A DNA stretch of 64,000 nt from Candidatus Peregrinibacteria bacterium (GCA_037143575.1 JBAWYM010000001.1:8327-72326); one strand, 5' to 3'. Shown: positions 36,088-58,355, counted from the first letter of the stretch. A program made the numbers and translations. Notes: generated by a model from the letters alone, not told the origin.

Positions 36088-36869
36088 GATTCTGGGGAGA
36101 AGCAAGAAAAAAGGGGCTTGTGGTCACTGGCCTTCAGAAGGGATGTGCCGATGAGGAATCCCTGCACGAACGGAGCAAGACGGCGAACGTCGCGTGGAGC
36201 AGAAATGCCGCTCTCGGCAATGACGGCACGCATCGTGGGGAGCTCATCTCTGAGCATTCCCGCAAGCAATTTGGTCGTGAGGAGATTCATCTTTCCGGTG
36301 TGGAGATCACGGTTATTGATCCCCAGCAGAAGGTGTTCTCTCCGGGCGTCATTAAACGTCCGCAGAACCTCCGCAATCTTCGTAACGTCTTCCTGTGAGT
36401 GAGATTCCAGAAGCACATCGAGGCCAAGATTGAACGCACAATCCATGAGATGGCGAAGATCATCACCGGAAAGGATCGCGGCGATGAGCAGAATGGCATC
36501 CGCTCCATGCAGTGCTGCAAGGTGAATCTGACGCTCCGAGAGAATGAACTCTTTGGCGAGGAGTGGTAGAGACGTGAGGGAGCGGACTTCGGCGAGGAGA
36601 TCGAAGCCTCCGCCGAAGAACTGGTGATCGCAAAGGATGGAGATTGCCTGGGCATGGCGGTTGAAAAGCGCCACCTGGGAAGGAACATCCTTGAGCTCCA
36701 GGAGCCTGCCACCCGAAGGCGAGATCGGCTTGATCTCCGCTATCAATGAAGGACGCTGGTTCATCACTGCAGAAACGAGAGAGGGATGATCTCTTCGTGT
36801 TGCCATAACCTCGGGAAGGAGGGCAATCTCCTCTCTCTTGTGCGCGACGATGGCATCGAGGAGGGTCAT
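36084..36869 (-). CDS. trpC: Indole-3-glycerol-phosphate synthase
   Basis: LIAEIKPISPSGG and ILLIAAIL motifs. ATG at 36869 overlaps the stop of the upstream gene. Confidence 0.9.
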   Translation of the reverse strand: MTLLDAIVAHKREEIALLPEVMATRRDHPSLVSAVMNQRPSLIAEIKPISPSGGRLLELKDVPSQVALFNRHAQAISILCDHQFFGGGFDLLAEVRSLTSLPLLAKEFILSERQIHLAALHGADAILLIAAILSGDDLRHLMDCAFNLGLDVLLESHSQEDVTKIAEVLRTFNDARREHLLLGINNRDLHTGKMNLLTTKLLAGMLRDELPTMRAVIAESGISAPRDVRRLAPFVQGFLIGTSLLKASDHKPLFSCFSPES

Positions 36870-38434: not shown

Positions 38435-39837
38435 GATGCGCTGTGGGAAGTATTTGCTAATTGCAAAGCCGCAAGGCAGCTCCTCGCTTTGTGCAGACAT
38501 TCATCATCCTCATGTTCCGGAACGCTATCTTTGACGATCCCCGCCCCTACCCGAAGGCTGATGGAATCGTTCTGAAAGAGCATTGTCCTAATCGTGATCG
38601 CGAAATCGAGGTTGCCCGAGAGATCGATGTACCCGAACGCCCCGCCGTAGACCCCTCTCGGAGAACGCTCCAGACGACGAATGATCTCCATCGCCCGGAC
38701 TTTCGGCGCACCCGTGAGAGTCCCGGCCGGAAAGACCGACCGCACGACATCGAGCGATGTTTTGTCCGATCGTACCTGTCCGACAATCTCCGAGACGAGG
38801 TGGTAGACGTGCGCGTACTGCTCGATGTGCACGGGATCCCGCACCTTCACCGAGCCGATCTCCGCGACCCTCCCCACATCATTCCTCCCGAGATCGACAA
38901 GCATCTGGTGCTCGCAGAGCTCCTTCTCATCATGGAGAAGATCTTCCTGTGATGCTTCGTCTTTCACTGCGTCTCCCGTCCTCTTCCGTGTTCCGGCGAT
39001 GGGTCGGTAGAGAATCTGCCGCCCTTCGACGCGTACGAGCGTTTCCGGTGAAGCTCCGACGATAATGAATGCGGGTGTCTGGAAGTAATACATGTACGGC
39101 GAAGGATTGATCCTTCGAAGCTCTTCGTAGACGCGATCAGGGGGAACAGTGCTGGGCATACGCAATTCCTGGCTCAGGACGACTTGGAATGCCTCGCCGG
39201 AAAGAATCTCTTCCTGGATGTTCTGTACGGATGCACAGAAATCCTCTCGCGATGTCTGACGATACGGTTCGATCTCTTCGAGAGTCGGCATGAGTACAGA
39301 AGGCTCGGCAACGCCGTCTTTCCACTTCCGATCATCGAAGAAAGGTGATGAGAGAATGATGCGTTCGATCTCGTAAAGATCTTCTTTCGAGTCTTCGTGT
39401 GTGATCATGGTAATCTCTTGAGCGGCATGGTCGATCTTCAAGATGACCTCCGGAAGAATGAATAATGCATCGGGAATGGTTGGGTCAGGAGTCAATTCAA
39501 TGAATTCAAACTGGCGCGCTGCTTCGTAACTTAGAAATCCGACGTAGCCCATTCGTAGCCGTGTATCGTTCGTTCCAGATCCGATCAATCCCTGAAAGAC
39601 CGAAAGAACATCGTGAACTTTCCCATCCGGAATGTACCGGGATCCACGGACTTCGCCATTCTGCACGGTGAGCACGTCACGCGCCCCCAAGCAGACGAAC
39701 GAGAGATCGTTATTGCCCTTGCGATCCGCAGATTCCAGGAGTGCGCAGTAATCGCGCTTGATCCCCAGTTTCCGCAGGAGGAAGAGTGGATCGCAGTGCT
39801 GAGGCCGGAGGGTGGTGAAGGTGAGAGGGAAGTCCAT
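38431..39837 (-). CDS. trpE: Anthranilate synthase component I
   Basis: YRPIAGTRKRT and GAFGYIDLSGNLDFAITIRT motifs. ATG at 39837. Confidence 0.9.
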   Translation of the reverse strand: MDFPLTFTTLRPQHCDPLFLLRKLGIKRDYCALLESADRKGNNDLSFVCLGARDVLTVQNGEVRGSRYIPDGKVHDVLSVFQGLIGSGTNDTRLRMGYVGFLSYEAARQFEFIELTPDPTIPDALFILPEVILKIDHAAQEITMITHEDSKEDLYEIERIILSSPFFDDRKWKDGVAEPSVLMPTLEEIEPYRQTSREDFCASVQNIQEEILSGEAFQVVLSQELRMPSTVPPDRVYEELRRINPSPYMYYFQTPAFIIVGASPETLVRVEGRQILYRPIAGTRKRTGDAVKDEASQEDLLHDEKELCEHQMLVDLGRNDVGRVAEIGSVKVRDPVHIEQYAHVYHLVSEIVGQVRSDKTSLDVVRSVFPAGTLTGAPKVRAMEIIRRLERSPRGVYGGAFGYIDLSGNLDFAITIRTMLFQNDSISLRVGAGIVKDSVPEHEDDECLHKARSCLAALQLANTSHSAS

Positions 39838-39868
39838 GGGAGAGGGTCGGGGTGAGGGAATTGAGAAA

Positions 39869-39900
39869 CAAAAAAAGCCCCTCCGCTCAGGGAAGGGCTT
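39869..39900 (-). terminator. Attenuator terminator upstream of trpE (GCCCTTCC-ctgagc-GGAGGGGC + T7)
   Basis: On the minus strand an 8-bp stem is followed by TTTTTTT, ending about 30 nt before the trpE ATG. Confidence 0.7.
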
Positions 39901-39923
39901 TGGATTCAAAGTTCAGAGCACCC

Positions 39924-40227: not shown

Positions 40228-41670
40228 CTACGACCCCGATATCGTCACGGTCGCAGCAGTGGAAGTCACTCCCAGCGAAGCACGAGTCGGGCTGGAGAGA
40301 CCCACGGTGAAGTTTTTGCCGATAGACCCACCCGGCTTCAAAATCGGGATGGCAATCGTCTTGCTGTACTCACCGGGGAAGAATGTGAGCGTACCGGAGA
40401 ACTGGGTGAACTCTTTGCTCGGCAACGCTGTACCGGCAATGGTCGTGTACACCACTGAAGCCTGACCGATCGTCCCACCGATACGATTGACCGTGAGAAT
40501 GGCATTGGCTCCTTCGGGCGCACTCACCGACGTATTGTCGAAGAGGAACGAACCACTGCCGGGCTTCTCCACCTCATCATCGGTGATCGCAAGATTGATA
40601 AGGGAAGGAGCGGCAATCGTCGCGCCTCCTGTGGGAGTGGTGATGTTGAGCCGAAGAAGCTTCTTCCCATCGGGCGTCGCATTGTAGATGACCGCCACAG
40701 TAAAGGTCTTCGTCGTCTCGCCTGCTGCGAAGGTGATCACTCCTGCAGAGGGCTGGTAATTGATACCACTCCGGGCGGTATTGTCTGATGTCGTATAGGA
40801 AACGCCAACCTGACCATTCGTTCCATTCGTGCGATTGAGAGTGATCGTCGCAAGTCCGATACTCTCGGATACTTCGTAGGCTGCCGCACTGAAACCGATC
40901 GTCCCTGCTCCGCTCACGGCACCTGCCGACGTCTGAGAAGCGGCACTGGAAGACGCTGTGCCCACAGGCTGACTACCAAGAATGGTGAGTGTCGCTGTGT
41001 TGATAGACCCAAGTGTCGCGCCGCCAGTGGGATTGGCGAGGGAGAGAAGCACCGTACGCGCAGAGAGCCCACTCTTGTTTTTGAGCTGTATCGAAAAGGT
41101 CTTCGTGGCTTCGCCATCGCGGAAGTTCAAGACGGAATTGGTGACCTCGATGAAGTCTGTACCGACGACCGCCGTGCCGGCTTTCACAGAGTAGGCGACG
41201 GAGACCACACCGCGAGACCCACCCGCACGTGTCACACTGAAGACCATCGTGGGGATAGACTGCGGAACGGTGAAGGAAGACATGGCAAAGGTAAAGGCTC
41301 CGATAGGATTGGCTGCAACGGCTCCCGCACTACTGGAACTCACGACTGTCGATGCAGTGGAAGAAGGAGTCGTTTGCGTCGGAGTATAGCTCGATCCACG
41401 GATATCGTCACGAAGACGCTTGAGCAAGACTGCAAGTTCTCCGCGTGTGACAGGATTATCCGGTCCGAACGTGCCGTTGCTGTACCCTTTGATAATATTG
41501 AGGTTGTACATCTCTCCCACGGCCTCATCGTAAAAAGTTCCTTCCGACATATCAGTGAAAACGGCTGAGCCTCGCATGGTAGCGAGAGCACCCATCGAGA
41601 GTCCGCCGAGGAGAACACCGGCGAGCAGTGATGGAACGGCGATCGTGAACAATCGTGAGGGGAGACGCAT
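40228..41670 (-). CDS. Surface protein: SLH domain plus four Calx-beta-like repeats
   Basis: Signal peptide. GYSNGTFGPDNPVTRGELAVLL (SLH). Repeated ...V.R.GG..G...V.Y.T..GTA..G.D[FY]......L.F..GE..KT[FI].I blocks. Confidence 0.65.
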   Translation of the reverse strand: MRLPSRLFTIAVPSLLAGVLLGGLSMGALATMRGSAVFTDMSEGTFYDEAVGEMYNLNIIKGYSNGTFGPDNPVTRGELAVLLKRLRDDIRGSSYTPTQTTPSSTASTVVSSSSAGAVAANPIGAFTFAMSSFTVPQSIPTMVFSVTRAGGSRGVVSVAYSVKAGTAVVGTDFIEVTNSVLNFRDGEATKTFSIQLKNKSGLSARTVLLSLANPTGGATLGSINTATLTILGSQPVGTASSSAASQTSAGAVSGAGTIGFSAAAYEVSESIGLATITLNRTNGTNGQVGVSYTTSDNTARSGINYQPSAGVITFAAGETTKTFTVAVIYNATPDGKKLLRLNITTPTGGATIAAPSLINLAITDDEVEKPGSGSFLFDNTSVSAPEGANAILTVNRIGGTIGQASVVYTTIAGTALPSKEFTQFSGTLTFFPGEYSKTIAIPILKPGGSIGKNFTVGLSSPTRASLGVTSTAATVTISGS

Positions 41671-41796
41671 AGAAAAAGGGGGGAAGGACAAAGAGGAAAC
41701 CGGAGAGAGTATGGGAACGATGAAAGGAATAAAGCAAGTGACAGCGGCAAAATCCGTAGGACATGATTATTTCTGTCCTATGGAACCTCTGAATAA

Positions 41797-42073: not shown

Positions 42074-42409
42074 ATGTCCACCCCCAAAATTCCGCAGCTC
42101 GCGGTGAAGATCGCTCCGCTCGGTGACCGCGTGGTCGTGCATCCTCTTGCACAGGAACAAGTGACGGCTTCCGGCCTCATCATCCCCGATACCGCTTCCG
42201 GTGAGAAACCACAGGAAGGAGTAGTCCTCGCCATGGGCAAGGGCGGCATCAGCAAAGACACGGCCAATCCGTCGGAATTCCTGAAGGTCGGCGATCGCGT
42301 CCTCTTCGGCAAGTACGCCGGTGACGATGTGAAGCTGAAGGATAAGGACGGCAAAGACGTGGAAGTGAAAGTCCTCCACCTCGATTCCATCTTAGGTAAA
42401 GTCGAATAG
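42074..42409 (+). CDS. groES: Co-chaperonin GroES
   Basis: IAPLGDRVVV...ASGLIIPDTA...GVVLAMGKG pattern. Confidence 0.95.
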   Translation: MSTPKIPQLAVKIAPLGDRVVVHPLAQEQVTASGLIIPDTASGEKPQEGVVLAMGKGGISKDTANPSEFLKVGDRVLFGKYAGDDVKLKDKDGKDVEVKVLHLDSILGKVE

Positions 42410-42456
42410 TTCGATGCTTCGACTCGGCTCAGCACAGGCTCCGCTCACTATGACAT
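42410..42456. repeat. REP-like element between groES and groEL
   Basis: TTCGATGCTTCGACTCGGCTCAGCACAGGCTCCGCTCACTATGACAT. Followed by a TTCTTAA-type simple repeat extending to 42492. Confidence 0.8.
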
Positions 42457-42485
42457 TTTCTTAATTCTTCATTCCTAATTCTTAA

Positions 42486-44138
<1,653 letters not shown>

Positions 44139-44145
44139 TCCGAAG

Positions 44146-44188
44146 TTAAAAAACGTAGGACAGGAATATTCCTGTCCTACGTTTTTTT
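44146..44188. terminator. Bidirectional intrinsic terminator (12-bp stem, A6 / T7 flanks)
   Basis: AAAAAACGTAGGACAGG-aatatt-CCTGTCCTACGTTTTTTT between convergent genes. Confidence 0.85.
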
Positions 44189-44200
44189 GTACGGAATCCA

Positions 44201-45106
44201 TTACTCCAGTCTCAGCGTGTACTGCGGCACTGTCGGGAAGAGCTTCGCCTTCACCGTCTCTGGTTCCACCTCGGAGAAGTCGAGTGATGTCGTCTGATGA
44301 TCGAGCGCGAATTGGATATCGAGGAGATTCATGAAGTGCCCAATCCCCGGGAAACGCTGCACGTCGGAGCCGCAAAATAAAGGATAAAAAATCGAATTCC
44401 AAGAGAAGGCACAGTCGACAGCGGCAAGTACACCGCCAATCCGCACAGAAAGCACATGCACCTTGTACGGCTTTGGCCTCGTCGGATCCACGAGCTTCCT
44501 CAGACACGCGAGCATCTTCTCATCGTGCCACGGGGAATCCGTGAACTTCGCCCTGTTCCATCCGATCATCGCATCCAGATCTTCCAGGTGATTCTCGGAG
44601 ATAATGGGTGACTGCGCAGTGATGACGCGCTGATCGTGACGAACGTTGCTTCGCAGTTTCTTCGGGAGCGTCATCAGATAGTCATCAACACTCCCAATGG
44701 CAGAGAGCGAAAGCACGGACTTCGAATTCTGAGACGTAAGAACTGCGCGCTCGCCGATCTGATGACGCAGGAGCTCAGCACAGGAATTCAGAAGACACGG
44801 ACGTGGAAGATGCGATAGAAGCTCTTCAATGTCACAGCTTTCCCGAACCCAGAACGCATTGTCCTCCTGCCAGTTGAACTCATCGCCGGTATCGCCGAAC
44901 CACAGGTACCGCTTCTGCTCCGGATGAAACCACAGCGGCACCATTCCCTTGTCCGGAAGCACGACGAACGCGGGCGCGAATCCGTAAACTTCGTAAAACG
45001 GCATGCGAAATTCCCACAATTCATAGAGGCTCCGCCTCGGGGAGAACTCGTCCCAGAGTGCTCTGCAGTAATCGATGTTGCTTTCGATGGAAGGGAAAGA
45101 AGGCAT
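44201..45106 (-). CDS. CelD/BioF2-like GNAT-fold acyltransferase
   Basis: The C-terminal half (VLSVRIGGVLAAVDCAFSWNSIFYPLFCGSD...FPGIGHFMNLLDIQFA) resembles the Acetyltransf_6 / FemAB-like fold pattern. ATG at 45106. Confidence 0.5.
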   Translation of the reverse strand: MPSFPSIESNIDYCRALWDEFSPRRSLYELWEFRMPFYEVYGFAPAFVVLPDKGMVPLWFHPEQKRYLWFGDTGDEFNWQEDNAFWVRESCDIEELLSHLPRPCLLNSCAELLRHQIGERAVLTSQNSKSVLSLSAIGSVDDYLMTLPKKLRSNVRHDQRVITAQSPIISENHLEDLDAMIGWNRAKFTDSPWHDEKMLACLRKLVDPTRPKPYKVHVLSVRIGGVLAAVDCAFSWNSIFYPLFCGSDVQRFPGIGHFMNLLDIQFALDHQTTSLDFSEVEPETVKAKLFPTVPQYTLRLE

Positions 45107-45223
45107 AGCTATTGTGATGAACCAACAATTCAATTGTCAAAAGCTGAAGCCGAAGCTCGGTTCCTATGATGAAGGAAAATCGTGAAACGACTACTTTACA
45201 AGTTGCAGCATAAGTAATATAGT

Positions 45224-46258
45224 ATGTACATGACAAAACCATCTAATTTGGAAAATGTAGTTCCGACATCTGCAGATGCAGCACCTCAAGTAGATCACAA
45301 CCGCGGATTGGAACGTCGTGCTGAGACTTTATCGACCATCGCAACTGAAAGACGCAGTGATACACAAGGTATGCTGGAGCGTCCGATGAGTAACAGACTC
45401 GCTCAAGAGCTCGCAGGCATGGCAACGATTACTCCTGTCGAAAGCCCCGAAGATCCTACATTGGAAGTCTTTACCATCAACGTCACTGATCCGGAGAAAT
45501 TCAATTCCAGAGAGAACCATGAACGTATGTTCACTCTCTTCGGGCCAATGCTCTATCGAACATATTATCCTGAAGTGACTCACGTTCCGAAGTTCGATGC
45601 ATGGGAAGATCACGAAGAAGAGGACTTCGGTAGTACAGACATTGGTTCCGCAGACGAGATCACTGTTGCTGCAAAAAATGACAAAGTAAGGTCCCTTGTG
45701 ATGATGAAGAAGGGAGAACCGCTCCCAAGCGGACAGAAAACCGCACTACTGCTCGTCTCTGCCGCACGCGGAAAAAGCAAAGCAAAAATTGCAGAAGACA
45801 TGGTCAATCGTACCTTGAGTAAAAACTACAAAGATACGGTCGTCTTCGCGGGTACCCATGAGCACCCAGCCTTGGTGTCTGCACTCAATATCGCCAACAG
45901 AGAAGACCCCAGTCACCGATTCTTCTTCCGCGGACGGGCAAATGGCGATAAGGACATTCCCGTCAGTCAGGAGGACGTTGCCACATTGGCAGAAGTTAAA
46001 GCGCAATTTACAAAAATGCTCTCACCAGGCGGTTCATTCTATATCGAAGAATCCGATCAAACTGACACAACCGTAAACGATGTAGACTACGGACGCTATG
46101 GCATCCATTGGAACTTCAATATCCATAAAGTTGATGGAGATCAATATCCCGCAGCAAATGAAACGTACAACGAATTGCGTGAACACGTCAGAGCGACCGG
46201 TAAAAAGAAGCATGGTTACTACGGAATGACCGTATGGCTTCCGAATGAGAAAAAATGA
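45224..46258 (+). CDS. Hypothetical protein (344 aa)
   Basis: Clean ORF, relatively A/T-rich. No family recognised. The start may be the second ATG (45230), which lies 6 nt after a TATAGT -10 hexamer. Confidence 0.55.
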   Translation: MYMTKPSNLENVVPTSADAAPQVDHNRGLERRAETLSTIATERRSDTQGMLERPMSNRLAQELAGMATITPVESPEDPTLEVFTINVTDPEKFNSRENHERMFTLFGPMLYRTYYPEVTHVPKFDAWEDHEEEDFGSTDIGSADEITVAAKNDKVRSLVMMKKGEPLPSGQKTALLLVSAARGKSKAKIAEDMVNRTLSKNYKDTVVFAGTHEHPALVSALNIANREDPSHRFFFRGRANGDKDIPVSQEDVATLAEVKAQFTKMLSPGGSFYIEESDQTDTTVNDVDYGRYGIHWNFNIHKVDGDQYPAANETYNELREHVRATGKKKHGYYGMTVWLPNEKK

Positions 46259-46361
46259 AGGATCTGGAGAGAAATAGTTCCTCCCATCCTTTCTCCACGC
46301 TCGTGAGCCGACATCAGGAATTCCTGTATATTCCCTATACACCTCTTCCTGACCTTCTCGC

Positions 46362-47645
46362 ATGCTCCGTATCGCCGCTGTCGAAAGCAGTGAATTGCTC
46401 TTCTCGCCTGCTCAGAAGTCCACGCTGTTTCTCACGTCCCCCGCAAGTCCGTTCCGCTCTCTCCTCCAATCACTCGCGAGCACAGTGAGCGTTCTTGAGT
46501 GGATTTTCCATACGAGGCTCGTCATGGTGGAAGAGGAAGTCCTGCTCCATCCCAAGACCACAGAGCTCCTCCATCAGAAGGATATTCAGGCCATCTGGCT
46601 CAACGACTGGTCGTCCCCGACACTGGAGGAATGGGCTAAGACCAATCACTTCACGCTGCTGTGCAATGCCTTCCGCGATCAGGAGCGACTGGAGAATAAG
46701 CTCTCCTTCGATGCGCTCGCCCGCAAGCATGCTCTTCCAGTTCCCGATGGCTGTACGGTGAAGACGATCGAAGAAGCCAGGAACTCCGGACTCTTCCCCG
46801 GTGTCCTCCAGAAGCCCGAGAGCTTCGGAGCGATGGGAACGTATTTCGTAGGGAATCCAAAAGCGCTGGATGCTCTCGAAAACGTCTTTGACGGCACTCC
46901 CCTCCTCCTCCGGAAATTCGAGAAAGGTCTCCCGATTGGCATCACGGTTCTGGTCGGGCCGAACAGAAGCCTCTTCTCCGCTCTGCGCGTTCAGCTCAAC
47001 TGGATCGACAGCTCAGAGGGCAATGTGCACTACGGCGTGCAGTGGCTTCCCCGCTCCCTCCTTCCATCTGGCGCGGTTGTCGCACTGGAACAGATGCTGC
47101 ATCGCACTGTCACGGCCCTCCGGTCCGAAGGCTTCCAGGGCCTCCTGAGTTTCGACTGCCTCATGACAGCGTCGCAGACACTCCTCATCGAGTGCAATCC
47201 CCGCCACTCCGGCGCGACCCTGCAGCTCAGCGCCCACCCAGAGCTCCTGCATGGACTGGATTATGCCGAGCAGTGCATCCGCGTCTTTTCGCACGACGAT
47301 CCCGCAATCGATGCGCCGACAATTCCAGAGACGATCTTCGAAGGAACCTCGATCGATCTCGATTCCCTTCCGATCGGAAAAGGAGCAGACCTCTCAGCTG
47401 TCCCTCAGAGCGGCTTCTATCAACTGCAATCTGACGGACTTCGAAGAACTGAAAATCAGAGTATTCCTTCCAATTCTCAGAATCTGTTTCTCTGGACACA
47501 GCCACCTGATGAAGAATCGCACTACCGCGGATTCGCCTTTGCCAATCTTCCGCTCACCACACTCTCCGGGCTACGATGCTCCGTGCATCCGCAGGGGCAG
47601 TCGTTCATCGATGCGCTCTCCGCTCTCTTCCGCCGCCAATCATGA
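46362..47645 (+). CDS. ATP-grasp-fold enzyme (unassigned specificity)
   Basis: Central LPVPDG...GVLQKPESFGAMGTYFV and C-terminal LLIECNPRHSGAT resemble ATP-grasp B and C subdomains. Confidence 0.55.
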   Translation: MLRIAAVESSELLFSPAQKSTLFLTSPASPFRSLLQSLASTVSVLEWIFHTRLVMVEEEVLLHPKTTELLHQKDIQAIWLNDWSSPTLEEWAKTNHFTLLCNAFRDQERLENKLSFDALARKHALPVPDGCTVKTIEEARNSGLFPGVLQKPESFGAMGTYFVGNPKALDALENVFDGTPLLLRKFEKGLPIGITVLVGPNRSLFSALRVQLNWIDSSEGNVHYGVQWLPRSLLPSGAVVALEQMLHRTVTALRSEGFQGLLSFDCLMTASQTLLIECNPRHSGATLQLSAHPELLHGLDYAEQCIRVFSHDDPAIDAPTIPETIFEGTSIDLDSLPIGKGADLSAVPQSGFYQLQSDGLRRTENQSIPSNSQNLFLWTQPPDEESHYRGFAFANLPLTTLSGLRCSVHPQGQSFIDALSALFRRQS

Positions 47646-48919
47646 TGCACGATTCCATCGCTCAACGTTTCCCGGACATCGAACGACTCCGACCGATCAT
47701 GCGTGCAATCGCCCAAGACCATCCGACCCCGCTGTACGTTTACGATTCCGACGAAGTCCGGAAGAACTATCGTGCCTTCGTTGCGGCCTTCCAGGCACAG
47801 CACATCCCTATGGACGTCTACTACGCTACGAAGAGCAATCCCTACATCGGTGTGCTCCGGACCGTCGTGGAGGAGGGCGGCGGTCTCGATATCTCGAGCC
47901 CCCGCGAACTCGCCCTGGCGCTGGAGGCAAAGGCGAAACGCATCATTTTCACGGGACCTGCCAAATCCGAAGCGGACTTCCGGGCGATCCTCCCGCTCGC
48001 CGACCGCATCATGGTCAATCTCGAAAGCCTGCGTGAACTGCGTCTCTTGTCCAGGATTGCGAGTGAAGCGGGACAGACGATCCGCTGTGGCGTACGCGTC
48101 TGCTGCAGACATCAGCAACACTGGAAGAAGTTCGGCATCGCACTCGAAACCCTTAGTGCATTTCTGCAGGAAGCACGAACCCTCCCGGGTATCCGCTGCT
48201 GCGGGATCCACTACCACGTGAGCCACGACGGCACACCGGAACGTTCCGTGCAGACCATTGATGAACTCGGAGAGATCCTGAAGCAGGATCTTTCCCCCGA
48301 AGAACTGCAACATTTGGAATATCTGGATATCGGAGGCGGATTTGCCCCACATGAATTTGAGGGAAAGCACTCCTGGAATCCGGAGCAGGAGACACTCCTG
48401 ATTTCCGAAGGACTGGATGTGGAGAATCTTCTCAGAGAGAACATCACTGATCGTTACATCACGGATACCATCGTGCCAATTGAGGAATTTGTTGCGCAAA
48501 TTGGATCGGCGTTGCGACGGAGTATCTTTTCGCTCCAACCGAACATCCACATATTCACAGAACCCGGTCGTTATCTCTGTCACAGCGCGATGCACATGCT
48601 CCTCACCCTCGTCGAAAAGAAGTCGAAGACCATGGGTATCGCCGACGGTGGCGTAAACATGGTCGGCTGGGAGAAATATGAATGCTACTACTACGTGCCG
48701 ATCTTCAACCTCACGCACTTCTCCCTCAATACGGAGATTCCGTTCCTTCTGTACGGTTCACTCTGCACCCCGGACGATGTGTGGGGCTACTCCGTGCACT
48801 GCTCATCTATAAAGGAAGGAGACGTCGTCTGGCTCCCCTACCAGGGTGCGTACACCTTCACGACTGCCGCCACATTCATCCGCGACATTCCTCCGGTGAT
48901 AGATCTCCCGACGAAATAA
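47642..48919 (+). CDS. PLP-dependent decarboxylase, Orn/DAP/Arg decarboxylase family (fold III)
   Basis: YYATKSNP (PLP lysine), YLDIGGGFAP and YGSLCTPDDVW motifs. The start overlaps the upstream stop (ATGA). Confidence 0.8.
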   Translation: MMHDSIAQRFPDIERLRPIMRAIAQDHPTPLYVYDSDEVRKNYRAFVAAFQAQHIPMDVYYATKSNPYIGVLRTVVEEGGGLDISSPRELALALEAKAKRIIFTGPAKSEADFRAILPLADRIMVNLESLRELRLLSRIASEAGQTIRCGVRVCCRHQQHWKKFGIALETLSAFLQEARTLPGIRCCGIHYHVSHDGTPERSVQTIDELGEILKQDLSPEELQHLEYLDIGGGFAPHEFEGKHSWNPEQETLLISEGLDVENLLRENITDRYITDTIVPIEEFVAQIGSALRRSIFSLQPNIHIFTEPGRYLCHSAMHMLLTLVEKKSKTMGIADGGVNMVGWEKYECYYYVPIFNLTHFSLNTEIPFLLYGSLCTPDDVWGYSVHCSSIKEGDVVWLPYQGAYTFTTAATFIRDIPPVIDLPTK

Positions 48920-49021
48920 TTGTTGAACTTTCACGAAGAAATTTTCCGATGACCTGATTCGTTTTTCATTATTCGCGATGAACTTGTTTTTGTTCAATGA
49001 AGTGCATACCCTCCTTGCACA

Positions 49022-50311
49022 ATGACCGACACCCCGAAAAGATTTCTCTTCGTCTCCTACGATGGCTCGACAACCGATCTCGCCTGGACCGTCGCGCAGG
49101 AAGGACATGAGGTTCGCCTCTGTCTGGTGGCGCCGGGTTTCGAGGACGTGGGGAAAGGATTCGTCAATGTGGTTTCTGACTGGAAGAAAAGCGTGGATTG
49201 GGCCGATATCGTCCTTTTCGATTACATCGGCGCGGGAGAAGAAGCGCAAGAAATCCGCAAGAGCGGCAAGCTCTGCATCGGAGGAACGCCGTACACCGAC
49301 CGACTCGAGAATGACCGCACGTTCGGTCAGGAAGAGCTCAAGCGCAACAAAATTCGCATTATTCCCTACCAGGAATTCCATTCCTTCGACGAAGGCATCG
49401 CCTACGTGCAGACGAATCCCGGACGGTATGTCATCAAACCTTCCGGAAGAGCGCAGGATCTCAAGCAGCTGCTCTTCGTCGGGAATGAAGATGACGGAAG
49501 CGATGTCGTCCGCGTGCTCGGGGCCTACCGCGACACGTGGAGCGACACCATCGATATTTTCCAGCTGCAGAAGAAAGTGACGGGCGTGGAAGTGGCGGTC
49601 TGTGCGTTCTTCGATGGAAAGAAATTTGTGCATCCCATCTACGTGAGCTTCGAGCACAAGAAGCTCTTCCCGGGAGAGCTGGGCGTCTCCACCGGAGAAA
49701 TGGGCACGAGCGGCTTCTGGGCTCCCAAGAATCCAATCTTCGAAACCGTGCTCCGCCCCTTCGAGCAGAAGCTCGCCGAGGAGAACTACATCGGATTCAT
49801 CGATGTGAATAGCATCGTCAACGGGTACGGCATCTACCCGCTGGAATTCACCTGCCGCTTCGGCTATCCGCAGATCAGCCTGCAGCAGGAAGGGATCAGC
49901 GAACCGATGGGCACGCTTCTCCTCCGGCTGGCTGCCGGTGAAAGTAATGGCGGTATCAAGGTAAAGCGCGGGTACCAGGTCTGCGCACTGATCGTGGTGC
50001 CCCCGTTCCCCTTCGAAGATCCCAAGACGTTCGAATCCTTCTCGAAGGACGCCGTGGTGGTCTTCAAGAAGAAAATCCCGGACGGCATCCACATCGGTGA
50101 CCTCCGTAAGAAGAATGAGGAATGGCTCATCACCGGAGCGGAGGGGGTAGCACTCGTCGTCTCCGGATCCGGCACAACCATGCGTGATGCACAAAGGCAA
50201 ATGTACGCGCGCATCCAGAATATCCTCATCAGCAATATGTACTACCGCACGGATATCGGTGACCGCTGGATCGACGATAGCGACCGCCTGAATTCTTGGG
50301 GATATTTGTAG
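49022..50311 (+). CDS. PurD-like ATP-grasp ligase paralogue
   Basis: YVIKPSG...LEFTCRFGYPQ parallels IEYNARFGDPEA in the canonical purD at 58356. Otherwise divergent. Confidence 0.65.
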   Translation: MTDTPKRFLFVSYDGSTTDLAWTVAQEGHEVRLCLVAPGFEDVGKGFVNVVSDWKKSVDWADIVLFDYIGAGEEAQEIRKSGKLCIGGTPYTDRLENDRTFGQEELKRNKIRIIPYQEFHSFDEGIAYVQTNPGRYVIKPSGRAQDLKQLLFVGNEDDGSDVVRVLGAYRDTWSDTIDIFQLQKKVTGVEVAVCAFFDGKKFVHPIYVSFEHKKLFPGELGVSTGEMGTSGFWAPKNPIFETVLRPFEQKLAEENYIGFIDVNSIVNGYGIYPLEFTCRFGYPQISLQQEGISEPMGTLLLRLAAGESNGGIKVKRGYQVCALIVVPPFPFEDPKTFESFSKDAVVVFKKKIPDGIHIGDLRKKNEEWLITGAEGVALVVSGSGTTMRDAQRQMYARIQNILISNMYYRTDIGDRWIDDSDRLNSWGYL

Positions 50312-50371
50312 AAACGTCACCACGATCCGGTAAGCACTGAAAGAATGCATACAATTGCCGGTACTGGTCGC

Positions 50372-50401
50372 TTGACTCTCGCGAAGACTGACGATTAGAG
50401 T
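50372..50401 (+). promoter_or_regulatory. Promoter TTGACT-N18-TAGAGT upstream of the first SET gene
   Basis: Read directly from the sequence. 11 nt before ATG 50413. Confidence 0.4.
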
Positions 50402-50412
50402 TCGCACACTTT

Positions 50413-50805
50413 ATGCTTCACATACGATCAACCGGTGAAAAAGGAAACGGCGTTTTTACTACTGCTGCAATCAGCAAAGGTGAAACTATCGAAGAATGCC
50501 CTGTGCTCATCCTTTCTCCCGAAGATACGAAAACACTCGAAAATACTATTCTGGATAATTACCTTTATCTGTGGGGGAAAGATCAATGCTGCATCGTCTT
50601 CGGTTACGGCATGCTTTACAACCACAGTGAACATCCTAATGTCACTGTCCGTGAAGATTTTGCGAACAATCGCTACATCCTCACTGCGCTACGTGACATC
50701 AAACCCAATGAGGAGCTCTGCCATAACTATGCCGATGGTCGTCCTTCTGGCACGACGGTAGTGTTTACAGGTCACGAGTTTGAGTTCATCCACCCCAAAA
50801 GCTGA
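50413..50805 (+). CDS. SET-domain methyltransferase (short form, 130 aa)
   Basis: EKGNGVFT, LYNHSEHPN and NEELCHNY motifs. Confidence 0.75.
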   Translation: MLHIRSTGEKGNGVFTTAAISKGETIEECPVLILSPEDTKTLENTILDNYLYLWGKDQCCIVFGYGMLYNHSEHPNVTVREDFANNRYILTALRDIKPNEELCHNYADGRPSGTTVVFTGHEFEFIHPKS

Positions 50806-50886
50806 CGAAGTCCCGCGAAACCCTCCCGTATCCTTGACACTCCCCACCCCTCCTCAGCACACTGTGGTCCATCTTCCTCCTCATTT

Positions 50887-51453
50887 ATGTACGGAATTAC
50901 CGAACTGAAACCCGGCCGCGCCATCCAGATCGACGGCATCCCTTACCTCATCATCTCCTCGATATTCGGCCGCAAGAGCCAGAGCAAGGCCAACATGCAG
51001 TGCAAGATCAAGAACATGCGCACCGGAGCGGTGATCCCCCGCAACTTCCAGGGAGCAGACATGATAGAGCCTGCAGATGTGGGGTACCGCAAATGCCAGT
51101 TCCTCTTTACCGATGGAGAGCAATTCACCTTCATGGACCTCAATTCCTACGATCAATTTTTTCTCAACAAAGAGACGCTGGGACCGGTAGCGGACTTTCT
51201 CGTGGAAGGCGGCGAAGTGGATGCACTCCTCTTCGAGGACAATCCCATCGGCATCAAGCTCCCATCAACTGTGGATCTGAAGGTGAAGGAGACGATCCCG
51301 GGAGTGAAGGGTGACACCGCAAGCGGCGGAGGCAAGCCTGCCACCATGGAGAGTGGCGTGGTGGTCTCCGTTCCGCTCTTCATCGAAGAAGGCGACATCG
51401 TCCGTGTGAATACGGAAACGGGCGAATATATGAGAAAAGTGGATCAAAAATGA
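50887..51453 (+). CDS. efp: Elongation factor P
   Basis: Full-length EF-P with VKGDTASGGGKPATMESG. The tip loop reads FGRKSQSKA instead of the canonical VKPGKGQA. Confidence 0.9.
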   Translation: MYGITELKPGRAIQIDGIPYLIISSIFGRKSQSKANMQCKIKNMRTGAVIPRNFQGADMIEPADVGYRKCQFLFTDGEQFTFMDLNSYDQFFLNKETLGPVADFLVEGGEVDALLFEDNPIGIKLPSTVDLKVKETIPGVKGDTASGGGKPATMESGVVVSVPLFIEEGDIVRVNTETGEYMRKVDQK

Positions 51454-51474
51454 TCTACCACATGAATTGTTTTA

Positions 51475-51975
51475 CTATTTTTCCTCCGGAAGAATAAATT
51501 TGCGAAAACCCTGAGTGAGAATGCGCACTTCATCCGGGTGGATATCTGCTAAAGTTTTAGCCATCGCGCCTCTGACTTCTTTAGGAATTTTTGTTGTAGC
51601 ATCACCATCGAACTCAAAATAATTACAATTGATTTCGCGACCCTTTGGAATAAATTTCCTTGCAACAGTAATACCCTCTGGGTGAGCAGCATCATTTTTT
51701 TGAATCGTATTGGAATCCTGTGCATGATTCATCATTTGCGCAGCCGCATCGCAGAAAACATATCCACGCTGGGATCTGTACGCGTGCACATCGAGATCTT
51801 CCTTCTCTTGTTTGGATAAATTGGCAACTGCATCGAGGGGAATGAGCCTGTCAATTCCCTCTCGGAATCTCCACACAATCGTGCCTGGATAAATATCTTC
51901 ATCTGCAATCAATCCTTGTCCTGCACCCGGTATTTCACTTGGTCCTACGTGTGCTTTCACTGTAATCATAAGCAT
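51475..51975 (-). CDS. SET-domain methyltransferase (short form, ~166 aa)
   Basis: GAGQGLIA, MMNHAQDSN and GREINCNYF motifs. The start is taken at ATG 51975 (or 51969). The longer ORF is antisense to the next SET gene. Confidence 0.7.
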   Translation of the reverse strand: MLMITVKAHVGPSEIPGAGQGLIADEDIYPGTIVWRFREGIDRLIPLDAVANLSKQEKEDLDVHAYRSQRGYVFCDAAAQMMNHAQDSNTIQKNDAAHPEGITVARKFIPKGREINCNYFEFDGDATTKIPKEVRGAMAKTLADIHPDEVRILTQGFRKFILPEEK

Positions 51976-52050
51976 ATTATAGATTATTATGCTATTATAG
52001 TCAATTTCCTTCAATTGCAAACAGATTTCATCTCCATAAGCTGTGCGCAA

Positions 52051-52626
52051 ATGATCGAACTCTTCTCCGGGTCTACGACTCACAAAGGAACAGGACTCTT
52101 CACCCGTCACGCTCTCGCCAAAGACGACATCCTCCTCGAGATGCAGGGCCCGCGTCTCAATTTCGCAGAGCTCGTCGTCTCTCCGTACTACGCCGTGGAT
52201 CACTACTTCCAGATCGCTGCGGACGAATATATCGGATCCTCTGGTGGCCTGGATGATCTCATCAACCACTCCTGCGAACCCAATTGCGGCATACGCGAGA
52301 AGGATGGCCGGTTTTTCCTGTGCGCCATTCGCGACCTGCCCGCAGGTACAGAAATCTCCTTCGACTACTCCACGGTGATGAATGACGGCAGCTACAAAAT
52401 GGACTGCGCGTGCGGCAGCCCCGTTTGTCGGCGCGTCGTCGGAGACTTCCGGGATCTTCCCGAGCACCTCATGATCAAGTACCTCGGCCTCGGCATTGTC
52501 CTGCCCTACATCGCCAAGGATTTCGGCCACCTCAACGTTCCTGCTCCGGAAGTCGAGCGTGAACTCGTGCCGGTAAGAGCCCGGAAGAAGAAGCAGACGA
52601 TGCGCCTGCAGCCGGCCATGGTCTGA
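52051..52626 (+). CDS. SET-domain methyltransferase with post-SET Cys motif (191 aa)
   Basis: HKGTGLFT, LINHSCEPNC, GTEISFDY and CACGSPVC motifs. Basic C-terminal tail. Confidence 0.8.
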   Translation: MIELFSGSTTHKGTGLFTRHALAKDDILLEMQGPRLNFAELVVSPYYAVDHYFQIAADEYIGSSGGLDDLINHSCEPNCGIREKDGRFFLCAIRDLPAGTEISFDYSTVMNDGSYKMDCACGSPVCRRVVGDFRDLPEHLMIKYLGLGIVLPYIAKDFGHLNVPAPEVERELVPVRARKKKQTMRLQPAMV

Positions 52627-52892
52627 ACTGATCAGTGCAGATCACCACATCCGATTTTTACGATAGCTTTGTCTTCATCGATAAATGTTCTTTCTCGGAT
52701 TACACAAATTCATTTTCCTTCCCGAAGTCGGTCGAATGGTTGTTCGGTGCATCTATCAGGACTGATCACGATGATGCGTTCTCATTTTCCGTTGCGAATA
52801 CCAACCAGCGAACTTCAATCAAAATACGACATCCAAAAAGTACAACCCATCTTTATTGCATCGTGGGATGAGATTACTACAATTCGCCGCAA

Positions 52893-53462
52893 ATGAATGA
52901 ACTGTACTTGGGCGCTACCGCCCACAAAGGAAATGGAGTCTTCTCGTCATCGGATATCCAGAGCGGAGACCTCATCATGGAGTTCACCGGCCCCCTCGTC
53001 ACTCGCAGTGAACTTCCCCAGCCGTACTCTTCCGTACTCGACCACTACACACAGGTGGACGAGGATTTGTACATGGGACCGTCTGGCGATCTGGATGACA
53101 TCATCAATCACTCGTGCAATCCCAACTGTGGACTCCGGGAAGAGGACGGCCGCCTGATGTGCTACGCCATCCGCGATATCGCGCAGGGCCAGGAACTGAG
53201 CTGGGACTACTCCACTATGCAGCAGAGCGGCTGGTGGGAAATGGACTGCCTGTGCGGGAGCGTGCTGTGCCGCGGTCGTATTGCGGACTTCCAGGATCTG
53301 CCCACATTCATCCGCCGCAAGTACCTGGACCTCCGGATCGTTGCACCCTACATCGCCAAGCAGTACGAGGAAGCACCGGTCCATGTTCGCCCGAAGCGTC
53401 GTGCTGTCCCGTCACGCAGGATGCACCTGCCACTGATCGGTCAGGGAGCGGTGATGGCGTGA
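52893..53462 (+). CDS. SET-domain methyltransferase with post-SET Cys motif (189 aa), tandem paralogue
   Basis: HKGNGVFS, IINHSCNPNC, GQELSWDY and CLCGSVLC motifs. Roughly half the residues are identical to 52051-52626 by eye. Confidence 0.8.
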   Translation: MNELYLGATAHKGNGVFSSSDIQSGDLIMEFTGPLVTRSELPQPYSSVLDHYTQVDEDLYMGPSGDLDDIINHSCNPNCGLREEDGRLMCYAIRDIAQGQELSWDYSTMQQSGWWEMDCLCGSVLCRGRIADFQDLPTFIRRKYLDLRIVAPYIAKQYEEAPVHVRPKRRAVPSRRMHLPLIGQGAVMA

Positions 53463-53482
53463 ACGAGCGGTGAGCGGATAAA

Positions 53483-53599
53483 GTGTCATCCTGAGGAGGA
53501 GCGCCGCAGCGCGACGTCTCGAAGGAGGACACGTCTTCGAGTATGCTTCGAGACGTCCTTCGCTTCGCTGCGCTCGCTCAGGACTCCTCAGCATGACAC
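53483..53599. repeat. Long nested palindrome (~117 nt) of the REP-like family
   Basis: Outer arms GTGTCATCCTGAGGAG / CTCCTCAGCATGACAC enclose inner arms GAGCGCCGCAGCG / CGCTGCGCTCGCTC and a central hairpin. Confidence 0.8.
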
Positions 53600-53667
53600 T
53601 CAGAACAGAATGACTGTGAAATCATTTTCAATTTATCCATTTTCCATTCGCCGTTATACTTCCCCCA

Positions 53668-54264
53668 ATGACTTCGCCCCTCTTCATCGTCCTGGAAGGC
53701 CCCGATGGTGCAGGAACCACCAAGCACAGTGTCATCCTGGAAGAACGCCTGAAGCGCGAAGGGCACACAGTACTGAGAACATTCGAACCTACGGACGGGC
53801 CCATCGGTGCGCAGATTCGCGCTGACCTGCGGGCAGGGAATCTCAGCGATCCGGAGGCGATTCAGCGAAGATTCTGCGAAGATCGTGCGTGGCATCTGGA
53901 ACATGTCATCGAACCGGCCATGAAGAATGGCACGATCGTCATTAGCGACCGGTATGCCGCATCCACCATCACCTACGGTCTGGCTCTCGGCATCGACCGC
54001 GCCATTCTGGAAGAAATGAATGCCGCATTTCGAAAACCAGATATTCAGCTTTTCTTGTTGCCGCCATTCGCAATGCTTCAGGAGCGCCTCGCACGACGGG
54101 AATCCACCGATGCCTTCGAGAAAGCGGAATTCCAGAAGAAGGTCTATGCGGAGTACCGGAGGCTGGCGGCGGAAGATCCTTCTATTATCGTCATTGATAC
54201 GTCGGGGGAGCTGGAAGTGGTGGCGGATATTATTTTGAAAGCGACGAAGAAGAATGACGAATGA
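53668..54264 (+). CDS. tmk: Thymidylate kinase (variant P-loop)
   Basis: FIVLEGPDGAGTTKH...TFEPTDGPIG...ISDRY pattern of dTMP kinase. The P-loop reads GAGTTK rather than G.GK[ST]T. Confidence 0.8.
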   Translation: MTSPLFIVLEGPDGAGTTKHSVILEERLKREGHTVLRTFEPTDGPIGAQIRADLRAGNLSDPEAIQRRFCEDRAWHLEHVIEPAMKNGTIVISDRYAASTITYGLALGIDRAILEEMNAAFRKPDIQLFLLPPFAMLQERLARRESTDAFEKAEFQKKVYAEYRRLAAEDPSIIVIDTSGELEVVADIILKATKKNDE

Positions 54265-55538: not shown

Positions 55539-55620
55539 TTTCCGTAGCTGGGGTTCTGCTTCCGTAGCTGGGGTTCACCTGTAGTGAGCTTGTCGAACTA
55601 TGAACCCCAGCTACGGAAAC
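55539..55620. repeat. TTCCGTAGCTGGGGTT x2 with inverted AACCCCAGCTACGGAA partner
   Basis: Read directly from the sequence. Lies in the divergent rlmN/folD intergenic region. Confidence 0.8.
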
Positions 55621-55668
55621 TGGGCTCCATCCCTTCCACTCTCCCCCGTCCATCCCTATCATAGAACC

Positions 55669-56520
55669 GTGACTCCCCTTCTCCTCTCCGGCCGCGAAGC
55701 CGCCGACGCACTCCTCGCAGAACTCAAGCCGAAGGTCCAGGAACTCGATCCCAAGCTCGTGGTCGTGCAGGTGGGTGACGATCCGGCGAGTGCCAGCTAC
55801 ATCAAGCAGAAGATCAAGAGCTGCGATGCTGTAGGGATGCGCCATGAGCACCGGCATCTTCCCGCAACGACGACGCTAAAGGAATTGATGGCACTCATTG
55901 ACGAGCTGAATACCGATCCGGACGTCACAGGATTCATCGTCCAAGTTCCCCTCCCCGGCGAACTCCAGAAGCACGTTCCGCAGATCATCCGCGCTATCGA
56001 TCCCAAGAAAGACATCGATGGCTTCGGCGCCTATAACCTCGGCAAGATGTTCCTCTCCCAGGAATTCGAGCACCTGCCGCCGGCAACCCCGGCAGGAATT
56101 ATCGCCATGCTGGATCACTACAAAATTCCCGTTGCCGGTAAGCACGTCGTGGTCGTGGGACGGAGCAATACCGTCGGCAAGCCCATCGGCATCATGCTCC
56201 TCAACCGTGACGCCACAGTGACGCTCTGCCACAGCAAGACCGCGAACCTCGCAGAAATCACCAAGCAGGCCGATATCCTGATTGCGGCTGTAGGAAGACG
56301 TAACCTGATCACCGCTGCGATGGTGAAAGACGGAGTGGTCGTCATCGACGTCGGAATGAACAAGAACGACGAAGGTAAGCTCTGTGGGGATGTGGACTTC
56401 GATGAAGTTTCGAAGAAAGCCTCAGCGATTACTCCGGTCCCTGGTGGCGTAGGTCCGATGACGGTGGCGGCACTAATCAGGAATTGTGTGAGGGCGAAGG
56501 AACGACAACACGGAGAATAA
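55669..56520 (+). CDS. folD: Bifunctional methylene-THF dehydrogenase / methenyl-THF cyclohydrolase
   Basis: VVQVGDDPASASYIKQK, GFIVQVPLP and VVVVGRSNTVGKP motifs. GTG 55669 is preferred because the upstream ATG 55600 lies inside the repeat. Confidence 0.85.
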   Translation: MTPLLLSGREAADALLAELKPKVQELDPKLVVVQVGDDPASASYIKQKIKSCDAVGMRHEHRHLPATTTLKELMALIDELNTDPDVTGFIVQVPLPGELQKHVPQIIRAIDPKKDIDGFGAYNLGKMFLSQEFEHLPPATPAGIIAMLDHYKIPVAGKHVVVVGRSNTVGKPIGIMLLNRDATVTLCHSKTANLAEITKQADILIAAVGRRNLITAAMVKDGVVVIDVGMNKNDEGKLCGDVDFDEVSKKASAITPVPGGVGPMTVAALIRNCVRAKERQHGE

Positions 56521-56726
56521 CGGAATAACAGATTATCGGAATATCCGTCCAGTTATTCAGATATTCCGATATTCATCACCTCGTTTTCTTGCGTCCCCAA
56601 AACAAATCGGTACTATCTCTTCGTGGAAACACCGTTTCCCTCTGTTTCGGCCTTTCGGATTTCCTTCCGTCTGGCCCGCTTGCGCGTTCACCAAATCCAA
56701 TCCCTAACCCCTAATCCCTAACCCCC

Positions 56727-58304: not shown

Positions 58305-58355
58305 GTTCGCTGTTGCCCCATACTTCTAACACCTTACTGCTTTCCAGAAACTCCC

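Follow-up and report, generated by a model that had tools for sequence, protein, structure and literature searches.

An ATP-grasp ligase/fold-III decarboxylase gene couple from Candidatus Peregrinibacteria, conserved in more than 10 phyla, and its possible role in carrier-independent tailoring of small molecules or short peptides

Several described systems couple a ligase to a fold-III pyridoxal 5'-phosphate (PLP)-dependent decarboxylase. In the BtrJ/BtrK system, which builds the 4-amino-2-hydroxybutyrate (AHBA) side chain of butirosin, an ATP-grasp enzyme ligates glutamate and an enzyme similar to diaminopimelate (DAP) decarboxylase (DAPDC) then decarboxylates it, with both working on the carrier protein BtrI. 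SbnH, FslC, and PvsE, the fold-III decarboxylases of the nonribosomal peptide synthetase (NRPS)-independent siderophore (NIS) pathways for staphyloferrin B, rhizoferrin, and vibrioferrin, have substrates that are amide-linked through the side chain; their partner ligases are NIS synthetases of the IucA/IucC type, and the acid is citrate. The exosortase-A/PEP-CTERM gene set combines an adenylating acyl-CoA ligase, a fold-III decarboxylase (TIGR03099), a FemAB-like GCN5-related N-acetyltransferase (GNAT; TIGR03019), and an acyl carrier protein (ACP). In the pathway of the N-acetylated dipeptide osmolyte N-acetylglutaminylglutamine amide (NAGGN), with its synthetase Ngg, as in L-amino-acid ligase systems, GNAT and ATP-grasp enzymes assemble a short capped peptide, needing neither an NRPS nor a carrier, and there is no decarboxylase. 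The methanofuran (MfnA/MfnD), phevamine, and E-64 pathways are looser analogs. Here we compare these systems with a locus in a 64,000-nucleotide stretch of DNA from Candidatus Peregrinibacteria bacterium (GCA_037143575.1 JBAWYM010000001.1:8327-72326), referred to below as the window, in which five adjacent genes, designated A to E, are followed by a small SET-domain gene, SET1. All five open reading frames (ORFs) proposed in a preliminary description of the window were recovered there, at the coordinates given below for each.

At the center of the locus are the ATP-grasp gene C (46362-47645, plus strand) and the decarboxylase gene D (47642-48919, plus strand), joined by an ATGA overlap that was read in the sequence: the TGA stop codon of C occupies positions 47643-47645 and the ATG start codon of D positions 47642-47644. 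A homolog scan of one genome per species gave 80 loci, and the sample analyzed here consists of 82 nonredundant D-family loci from more than 10 phyla, in which ORFs were called with weighting by conservation and then clustered into gene families. The family ranges over lineages of the candidate phyla radiation (CPR), Myxococcota (including cultivated Sorangium), Bdellovibrionota, Zixibacteria, Ignavibacteria, the Planctomycetes-Verrucomicrobia-Chlamydiae (PVC) group, Desulfobacterales (Desulfotignum), and Gammaproteobacteria. In 70 of the 82 loci, D has an ATP-grasp gene of the C type or its sister type no farther than 2.5 kb away, and in 3 more (L045, L054, and L060) it has one of another type beside it. 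Five of the 9 loci left without an ATP-grasp neighbor are truncated at D, which leaves 77 loci with adequate flanks, and 73 or more of these have such a gene. The adjacency is beyond chance, since many unrelated genomes bring these families together: synteny of C and D extends over more than 10 phyla, their linkage is near-universal, and C is the obligate partner of D. As to whether all five genes travel together, C and D do, A joins them in 34 of the 82 loci (~40%), and E is an occasional companion (6/82). The base composition of the window shows nothing unusual, and its best matches assign the organism to Peregrinibacteria/Peribacteraceae.

The D family comprises more than 300 sequences with 36 to 58% identity. 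Protein D is matched by the Pfam domain Orn_Arg_deC_N with an E value of 1e-30 (107 bits, versus 28.6 bits for Ala_racemase_N) and contains the motifs YATKSN, DIGGGF, and CTPDD. An alignment of 85 family members shows conservation of K64, H192, D229, G231 to G233 of the DxGGG loop, E307 to R310 (EPGR), C375, D379, and Y404, along with the family-specific motifs G342-W343-E344 and C-T-P; D is predicted to be a catalytically intact fold-III decarboxylase. Profiles, motifs, and the reading of the sequence thus agree with the preliminary description on the ATP-grasp nature of C, the ornithine/DAP/arginine-type decarboxylase nature of D, and the overlap of their genes. The AlphaFold2 model of D has a mean predicted local distance difference test (pLDDT) score of 90.9 and matches many structures of the family with a Foldseek probability of 1.0. 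It is about equidistant (19 to 24% identity, TM-score 0.66 to 0.76) from DAPDC, D-ornithine/lysine decarboxylase, lysine/ornithine decarboxylase (L/ODC), SbnH, and FslC, with the best TM-score and root mean square deviation for FslC (0.76 and 3.6 Å).

The relation of D to the lysine biosynthesis gene lysA deserves attention, as some D homologs are named diaminopimelate decarboxylase. The lysA model TIGR01048 is the best NCBIfam match of D, and DAPDCs are its top Foldseek matches; still, the score of 152.7 bits is half the equivalog cut-off of 297.9 bits, and a member of the family from the type-2 loci described below scores 143 bits. Scores against other specific models are lower: 105 bits for the exosortase-associated TIGR03099 (cut-off, 478), 58 bits for the FslC model NF041039 (500 needed; range over D-family members, 58 to 88), and values far below the lysA score for the DokD and NspC models. 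In profile alignments, the Arg of the DAPDC motif LIRPxxY falls on G342/W343 of D and the Glu of C-E-S/T-G-D on Thr376. In DAPDC, these Arg and Glu residues hold the distal L-center of DAP; in the D family, G342 is found in 85 of the 85 sequences, W343 in 78, and T376 in 65, and Arg and Glu are outside the five commonest residues at these positions. Thr376 also takes the position of Asp361 of ornithine decarboxylase (ODC), the Asp that follows the catalytic Cys, and Asp is not conserved there. Judged by its sequence, then, D is not LysA: it lies off the lysA group and has none of the DAP-specific residues, in keeping with the initial view that the cassette is not a housekeeping one. A free simple diamino acid is disfavored as its substrate because D is without the distal-site residues of ODC, L/ODC, and DAPDC. 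The name alanine racemase, given to other homologs by the Prokaryotic Genome Annotation Pipeline (PGAP), probably reflects the weak match to Ala_racemase_N.

Taken alone, protein C matches ATP-grasp_3 with an E value of 0.007 (16.9 bits, versus a Pfam cut-off of 23.2). The profile of its family matches ATP-grasp structures, including those of carbamoyl-phosphate synthetase (E value 1e-9), PurK, Ddl, and PGM1, and the family alignment shows no variation at K113, D265, E277, N279, and R281, which fits an ATP-binding Lys and a Mg-binding Asp/Glu-x-Asn. On the strength of this profile and these residues, C is assigned to the ATP-grasp superfamily and is predicted to be a divergent ATP-grasp amide ligase. 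It is homologous to the sister ATP-grasp cluster of the L-amino-acid ligase type (hhalign probability, 97.8%), which itself matches the L-amino-acid-ligase C-terminal domain (LAL_C2), DdaF, and, weakly, TIGR03103, with all scores far under the respective cut-offs.

How closely, then, does the C-D couple follow the systems listed above? A PDB search with the D profile also brings up BtrK (E value 9e-35), which ranks behind several DAPDCs, SbnH, and FslC; the resemblance to BtrJ/BtrK is one of logic, not of membership. SbnH, FslC, and PvsE appear to be the best functional analogs of D, as enzymes of free substrates. SbnH and D have the C-T-P-x-D motif in common, and some D loci, like those of the NIS siderophores, carry a gene for a transporter of the major facilitator superfamily (MFS). 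The differences are that identity is ~21% and that the ligase here is an ATP-grasp enzyme; none of the recurrent gene clusters that neighbor D matched an NIS synthetase. The exosortase-A set, equally uncharacterized, shares with this locus the combination of a ligase, a fold-III decarboxylase, and a FemAB-like GNAT, but its ligase is an adenylating one, and there is no ACP or exosortase context here. A literature search for a characterized cluster of ATP-grasp, decarboxylase, and GNAT or SET genes, or for a characterized PurD-like paralog, returned analogs only.

Carrier proteins form the main point of departure from butirosin biosynthesis. The preliminary description, which had drawn the BtrJ/BtrK parallel, saw no carrier-protein gene in the cassette, and the intergenic gaps there are indeed at most 117 nucleotides. 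A comparison of small ORFs (30 to 95 amino acids) across the D-family loci revealed no conserved candidate for a carrier or a precursor peptide, and no PP-binding Pfam domain was found in three annotated D contexts. Because no carrier is conserved in the D loci examined, the BtrI-dependent mechanism is not the model for this locus, whereas the ligate-then-decarboxylate logic of the parallel stands as the most economical one. The same lack of a conserved small ORF led us to reject a carrier-protein model or one based on ribosomally synthesized and posttranslationally modified peptides (RiPPs).

From the observed folds, the preserved catalytic residues, the tie between C and D, the repeated association of A, SET, and E genes with this pair, the lack of detectable carrier genes, and the separation of D from lysA, we infer a carrier-independent pathway, built around the obligate C-D couple, in which a small molecule or short peptide is tailored by ligation, decarboxylation, and capping of the resulting amine; its reaction order, linkage type, substrates, and product all belong to this inference, to which we assign a probability of roughly 0.5. 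C would form an amide bond at the expense of ATP. In its substrate, a PLP-dependent decarboxylase requires an unsubstituted alpha-amine adjacent to the carboxylate, so the product of the ligase can be the substrate of D only if it is linked through the side chain; the amino acid moiety added by C would accordingly keep its alpha-amino and alpha-carboxyl groups free, in an isopeptide-type linkage. Side-chain linkage of the amino acid likewise precedes decarboxylation by SbnH, FslC, and BtrK. D would strip off the alpha-carboxylate to leave an unbranched primary aminoalkyl tail, the terminal amine of which could be modified by acyl or aminoacyl transfer (A), acetyl transfer (B), addition of a glycine-like small amino acid in the fashion of PurD (E), or N-methylation (SET1).

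Gene A (44201-45106, minus strand) is transcribed divergently from B and encodes a FemAB/CelD-like GNAT. The window protein scores 21.2 bits against Acetyltransf_6 (PF13480), for which the gathering score is 22. All 23 aligned members of its family match this domain (best E value 1.8e-25), and a few also match FemAB_like or LPG_synthase_C; family-wide profile evidence thus marks A as a genuine Acetyltransf_6 protein, in line with the CelD/BioF2-like acyltransferase proposed at the outset. Sequence and profile searches of the PDB returned nothing for A. It occurs with the ATP-grasp-D pair but without E in ~30 loci. The butirosin transfer enzyme BtrH has a papain-like fold and is not a GNAT (PMC2922099).

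Gene B (45224-46258, plus strand), 344 codons long and previously described as coding for a protein of unknown function, belongs to a rare family, with 18 representatives among 1.8 billion proteins in a full HMMER search; a word-based homolog search returned B itself only. The window protein has no match of its own in Pfam or NCBIfam, and its single-sequence AlphaFold2 model is uninformative (pLDDT, 35). However, 5 or 6 of 22 family members match Acetyltransf_1, Acetyltransf_7, or Acetyltransf_10 (best E value 2.9e-7), and Acetyltransf_9 is also among the models matched in the family. Since this small family matches GNAT models, B is probably not without a recognizable fold and is better described as a putative, highly divergent GNAT-fold acetyltransferase-like protein. 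In the alignment, its relatives have a motif-A-like R-x-x-G-x-G/A stretch where window B reads R-G-K-S-K-A. B-type genes adjoin D in five other CPR loci (L001, L019, L020, L024, and L080), and B-type and A-type genes are never found together outside the window. A kinship between A and B was considered and rejected (hhalign probability, 0.7%). The divergent intergenic region between the two genes (45107-45223) has promoter-like hexamers on both strands, with sigma-70-like matches at 45140-45111 (minus) and 45195-45223 (plus), which is weak evidence, as the total number of matches is not above the shuffled expectation.

SET1 (50413-50805, plus strand) encodes a minimal SET-domain methyltransferase of 130 amino acids (Pfam SET E value 1.4e-16). 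Small SET genes are present in 9 of the 82 D loci, and orthologs of SET1 that are 39 to 41% identical to it adjoin D in Sorangium (L004, L047, and L048) and in L011, L021, and L026. In L011 (c2-c6-C-D-SET) and L026 (c2-C-D-c4-SET), where the c numbers are cluster labels, the SET gene is the last of a same-strand operon. The question of whether the cassette travels with the adjacent SET and efp genes has a divided answer: SET1 belongs to the conserved neighborhood, and efp is only a neighbor. Outside the window, efp is found in none of the 82 D loci, and in a second sample of 83 loci centered on E it occurs once, not adjacent to E. A link to the modification of elongation factor P (EF-P) of the EpmA/B/C, EarP, or YmfI type was rejected, given the absence of efp from all other D loci. 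The efp gene of the window lies at 50887-51453, and the loop that bears the modified Lys/Arg in other bacteria reads F-G-R-K-S-Q-S-K-A there and V-K-P-G-K-G-Q-A in E. coli, as aligned by eye. Four SET-domain genes surround it, at 50413-50805 (plus), 51475-51975 (minus; Pfam SET E value 2.8e-7), ~52060-52626 (plus), and 52893-53462 (plus). Only the first is of the ortholog type found beside D or E elsewhere, and four SET paralogs within ~3 kb looked unusual for a bacterium.

The unbranched aminoalkyl amide expected from C and D would mimic a lysine side chain, which would explain the recruitment of a SET enzyme. A tentative and rather unlikely corollary is that the operon SET enzymes (SET1 and those of Sorangium, L011, and L026) methylate precisely such a nonprotein, lysine-side-chain-like aminoalkyl amide made by C and D. 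If true, this would be the first SET enzyme acting on a small molecule or a short nonribosomal peptide, it would bring to light a novel family of metabolites with quaternary or capped amines in CPR and other poorly studied phyla, and it would agree with the view that lysine modifiers of the chromatin type originated in bacterial peptide secondary metabolism.

Gene E (49022-50311, plus strand) codes for a PurD-like ATP-grasp ligase that represents a very large and highly conserved paralog family. It has GARS_A and GARS_C, does not match GARS_N, and scores 100 bits against the purD model TIGR00877 (cut-off, 288), the only NCBIfam model that it matches; the family is annotated inconsistently. PDB structures of PurD match it over the full length of the fold (residues 7 to 417), with EHKK...STGEMGT of E resembling DHKR...PNTGGMG of PurD. 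Canonical purD is located at 58356-59678, after purF and folD, and encodes all three GARS domains (N, A, and C); E is 22% identical to its product and has TTD in place of the conserved N-terminal REH motif. The earlier distinction between E and the true purD is thus borne out. The family has at least 5,990 homologs (E value ≤1e-20), a mean column identity of 71%, and 57 to 60% identity between members from Peregrinibacteria, Bacteroidota (Ekhidna), Alphaproteobacteria (Hyphobacterium and Parvularcula), and others. A phage origin of E was rejected, the best match in phage records being 30% identical and the others being ordinary purD.

Divergent E genes are contiguous with C-D in three phylogenetically unrelated loci, with the gene orders GNAT-E-C-D (L037), E-C-D (L081), and E-c2-C-D (L052). 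L021 holds E, SET, C, A, and D, so that the combination of A, C, D, and E is seen again in both L021 and L037. In its own sample of 83 loci, E is usually solitary and in variable context, with neither C nor D in any of them. Because of this, E is regarded as an occasional partner and not as part of the core. The neighbors that do recur are a small GNAT of 151 amino acids (8 loci), an A-type GNAT (3 loci; directly downstream of E in L090, where it is 51% identical to A, and in L105, with a 4-nucleotide overlap, and not adjacent in L130), a SET gene directly downstream of E (L089 and L159), and a class-I methyltransferase (L087 and L153); E adjoins SET in the window, L021, L052, L089, and L159. 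All these partners are predicted to be amine-capping enzymes, not purine genes, which would fit PurD-like chemistry. PurD couples an amino acid with an amine, and the alpha-amine left free in the product is capped in a later step, which for glycinamide ribonucleotide (GAR) is a formylation. The sole purine gene among the neighbors is purH, which E directly follows in L087.

Two broader architectures of D loci offer further context. Type-1 loci, mostly from CPR (L006 to L009, L011 to L018, L032, L038, L044, L080, and others), have an 800-amino-acid L-amino-acid ligase/Ddl fusion with C-D behind it, further L-amino-acid ligases, a 460-amino-acid protein with weak similarity to MurL, a peptide epimerase (NF041275; E value 1.4e-6), and an enolase-superfamily protein resembling L-Ala-D/L-Glu epimerase (E value 6e-56). 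This gene content suggests a D-amino-acid-containing peptide built by ATP-grasp ligases, in a manner reminiscent of peptidoglycan stem-peptide chemistry. Type-2 loci, from Zixibacteria, Ignavibacteria, Deltaproteobacteria, and the PVC group (L039, L043, L050, L053, and L057 to L083), have the order TetR, fasciclin, a gene with the S-adenosylmethionine decarboxylase (AdoMetDC) fold, A-type GNAT, ATP-grasp, D, and MFS; TetR and fasciclin genes are upstream in many of them, and the MFS gene follows D in several. The AdoMetDC-fold gene is divergent (PF02675 E value 1e-22; 26 bits, versus 76 for the SpeH model). The type-2 gene set looks typical of an exported small molecule, and the small-molecule context suggested by the extra genes of both types counts in favor of the pathway outlined above.

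The window is a minimal version of these loci to which B, E, and SET1 are added, and it has no homologs of the L-amino-acid ligase/Ddl fusion or of the MurL-like, epimerase, AdoMetDC-like, TetR, and MFS genes. The closest relative found, from Peribacteraceae STF2_188 (L005), keeps the order SLH-groES-groEL...C-D...E...tmk when compared with positions 42074-54264 of the window; identity is 91% for E, 86% for GroEL, 56% for D, and 46% for C. It also has no efp at that place and carries, between D and E, a gene for a 661-amino-acid protein in which an HExxH motif occurs, and because of these differences in gene content the groEL-tmk stretch is regarded as variable.

Several observations tell against a single pathway of ligation, decarboxylation, and capping. 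L005 keeps C, D, and E but has no A, B, or SET genes. Since the window is without the additional ligases, epimerases, transporter, and regulator found elsewhere, the evidence from other loci transfers to it only partly. C has no close characterized relative, its best PDB matches being generic ATP-grasp domains. The order of the reactions could be reversed. Macromolecules (cell wall, proteins) are the classical targets of FemAB-like GNATs and SET domains. Finally, the solitary occurrence of E in its own 83 loci means that E and SET1 may form a separate module.

The best-surviving alternative, itself unlikely, puts decarboxylation first: D would make a free amine or diamine, C (together with E, where present) would attach amino acids or acids to it, and the GNATs and SET enzymes would cap the resulting polyamine or amine conjugates. 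Such an order is that of pathways of the methanofuran (MfnA/MfnD), phevamine, or E-64 type. PurD-type chemistry, which joins an amino acid to an amine, would suit E in this role, and the AdoMetDC-fold gene directly upstream of GNAT-ATP-grasp-D lends the type-2 loci a polyamine flavor. Two reports (PMC6187163 and PMC12568646) concern analogs in which ATP-grasp ligases act on decarboxylase-made amines. However, the missing distal-site residues of D are hard to reconcile with a free ornithine, lysine, or DAP substrate, the order of the genes and their ATGA coupling put C upstream of D, and the AdoMetDC-like gene is not in the window.

Improbable in our view is a macromolecular target, with C coupling an amino acid to the carboxylate of a protein or to a polymer of the cell wall or envelope, as RimK, LysX, and D-aspartate ligase do, D trimming it to an amine, and the GNAT and SET enzymes modifying the resulting synthetic lysine-like side chain. 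A resembles FemAB and the C-terminal domain of lysylphosphatidylglycerol (LPG) synthase, both aminoacyl-tRNA-dependent enzymes of the envelope; SET domains are known as protein lysine methyltransferases; the Ddl-like, MurL-like, and Ala-Glu-epimerase-like genes of the CPR loci recall the chemistry of the peptidoglycan stem peptide; and the substrate of BtrK is protein-bound. Nevertheless, the small-ORF comparison found no conserved acceptor or carrier gene in the D loci, which also have no conserved mur, fts, or ribosomal neighbors and, beyond the window, no efp, and the MFS exporter and TetR regulator of type-2 loci are typical of small molecules.

More doubtful still is that the cassette unites two unrelated modules, B-C-D as one unit and E-SET1 (perhaps with A) as an independent one that acts on a common cellular amine, the arrangement being partly an accident of gene order in Peribacteraceae. 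This would agree with the E-centered sample, in which C and D are missing and the recurrent neighbors are GNAT, SET, and class-I methyltransferase genes, and with the degree of conservation in L005, where the 91% identity of E against 56% for D and 46% for C points to different constraints. On the other hand, E is contiguous with C-D in three unrelated loci, SET lies directly beside D without E in Sorangium, L011, and L026, and A accompanies the ATP-grasp-D pair in E-free loci; because of these three kinds of linkage, the families of A, SET, E, and C-D share one association network.

Despite its lysA-like best matches and the DAPDC and alanine racemase names of some homologs, it is hardly credible that D is simply the organism's lysA (or alanine racemase) amid unrelated primary metabolism, given its score at half the lysA cut-off, the altered distal Arg and Glu positions in the 85 sequences, the preference for Orn_Arg_deC_N over Ala_racemase_N, an obligate ATP-grasp neighbor that is foreign to lysA, and the presence of D within a C-D-SET locus in the 14.6-Mb genome of Sorangium.

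Whatever its product, the locus represents an uncharacterized family of decarboxylases that is widely distributed, is obligately partnered by an ATP-grasp enzyme, and is linked, recurrently and unexpectedly, to SET genes. That many candidate-phyla bacteria, despite tiny genomes, and members of at least 10 other phyla keep this cluster suggests an important amine-containing metabolite or envelope modification. Annotation pipelines misname this new fold-III family as diaminopimelate decarboxylase or alanine racemase, so that metabolic reconstructions of uncultured bacteria would be credited in error with lysine or cell-wall capability. The SET methyltransferases that recur inside these operons give a concrete and testable clue to what prokaryotic SET proteins do, and the C-D-SET locus of cultivable Sorangium makes the question experimentally accessible.

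A PADLOC search of A to E and SET1 for anti-phage defense genes gave no match. Two long antisense ORFs in the region are artifacts, one at 48803-50407 (minus strand, 534 amino acids) opposite E and one at 42429-43928 (minus strand, 499 amino acids) opposite groEL. The gene at 40228-41691 (minus strand) codes for a 487-amino-acid protein with SLH and three Calx-beta domains, likely an S-layer or cell-surface protein, which is 47% identical to its counterpart in L005. On one flank, trp genes (trpE, a trpG-trpD fusion, trpC, and a PALP-family gene that is probably trpB) extend over 34295-39909, and the other flank (55600-59678) holds the purine/folate genes folD, purF, and purD. With trp and purine/folate genes on both sides of the region, the biosynthetic capacity of this organism looks fuller than expected for a member of the CPR.

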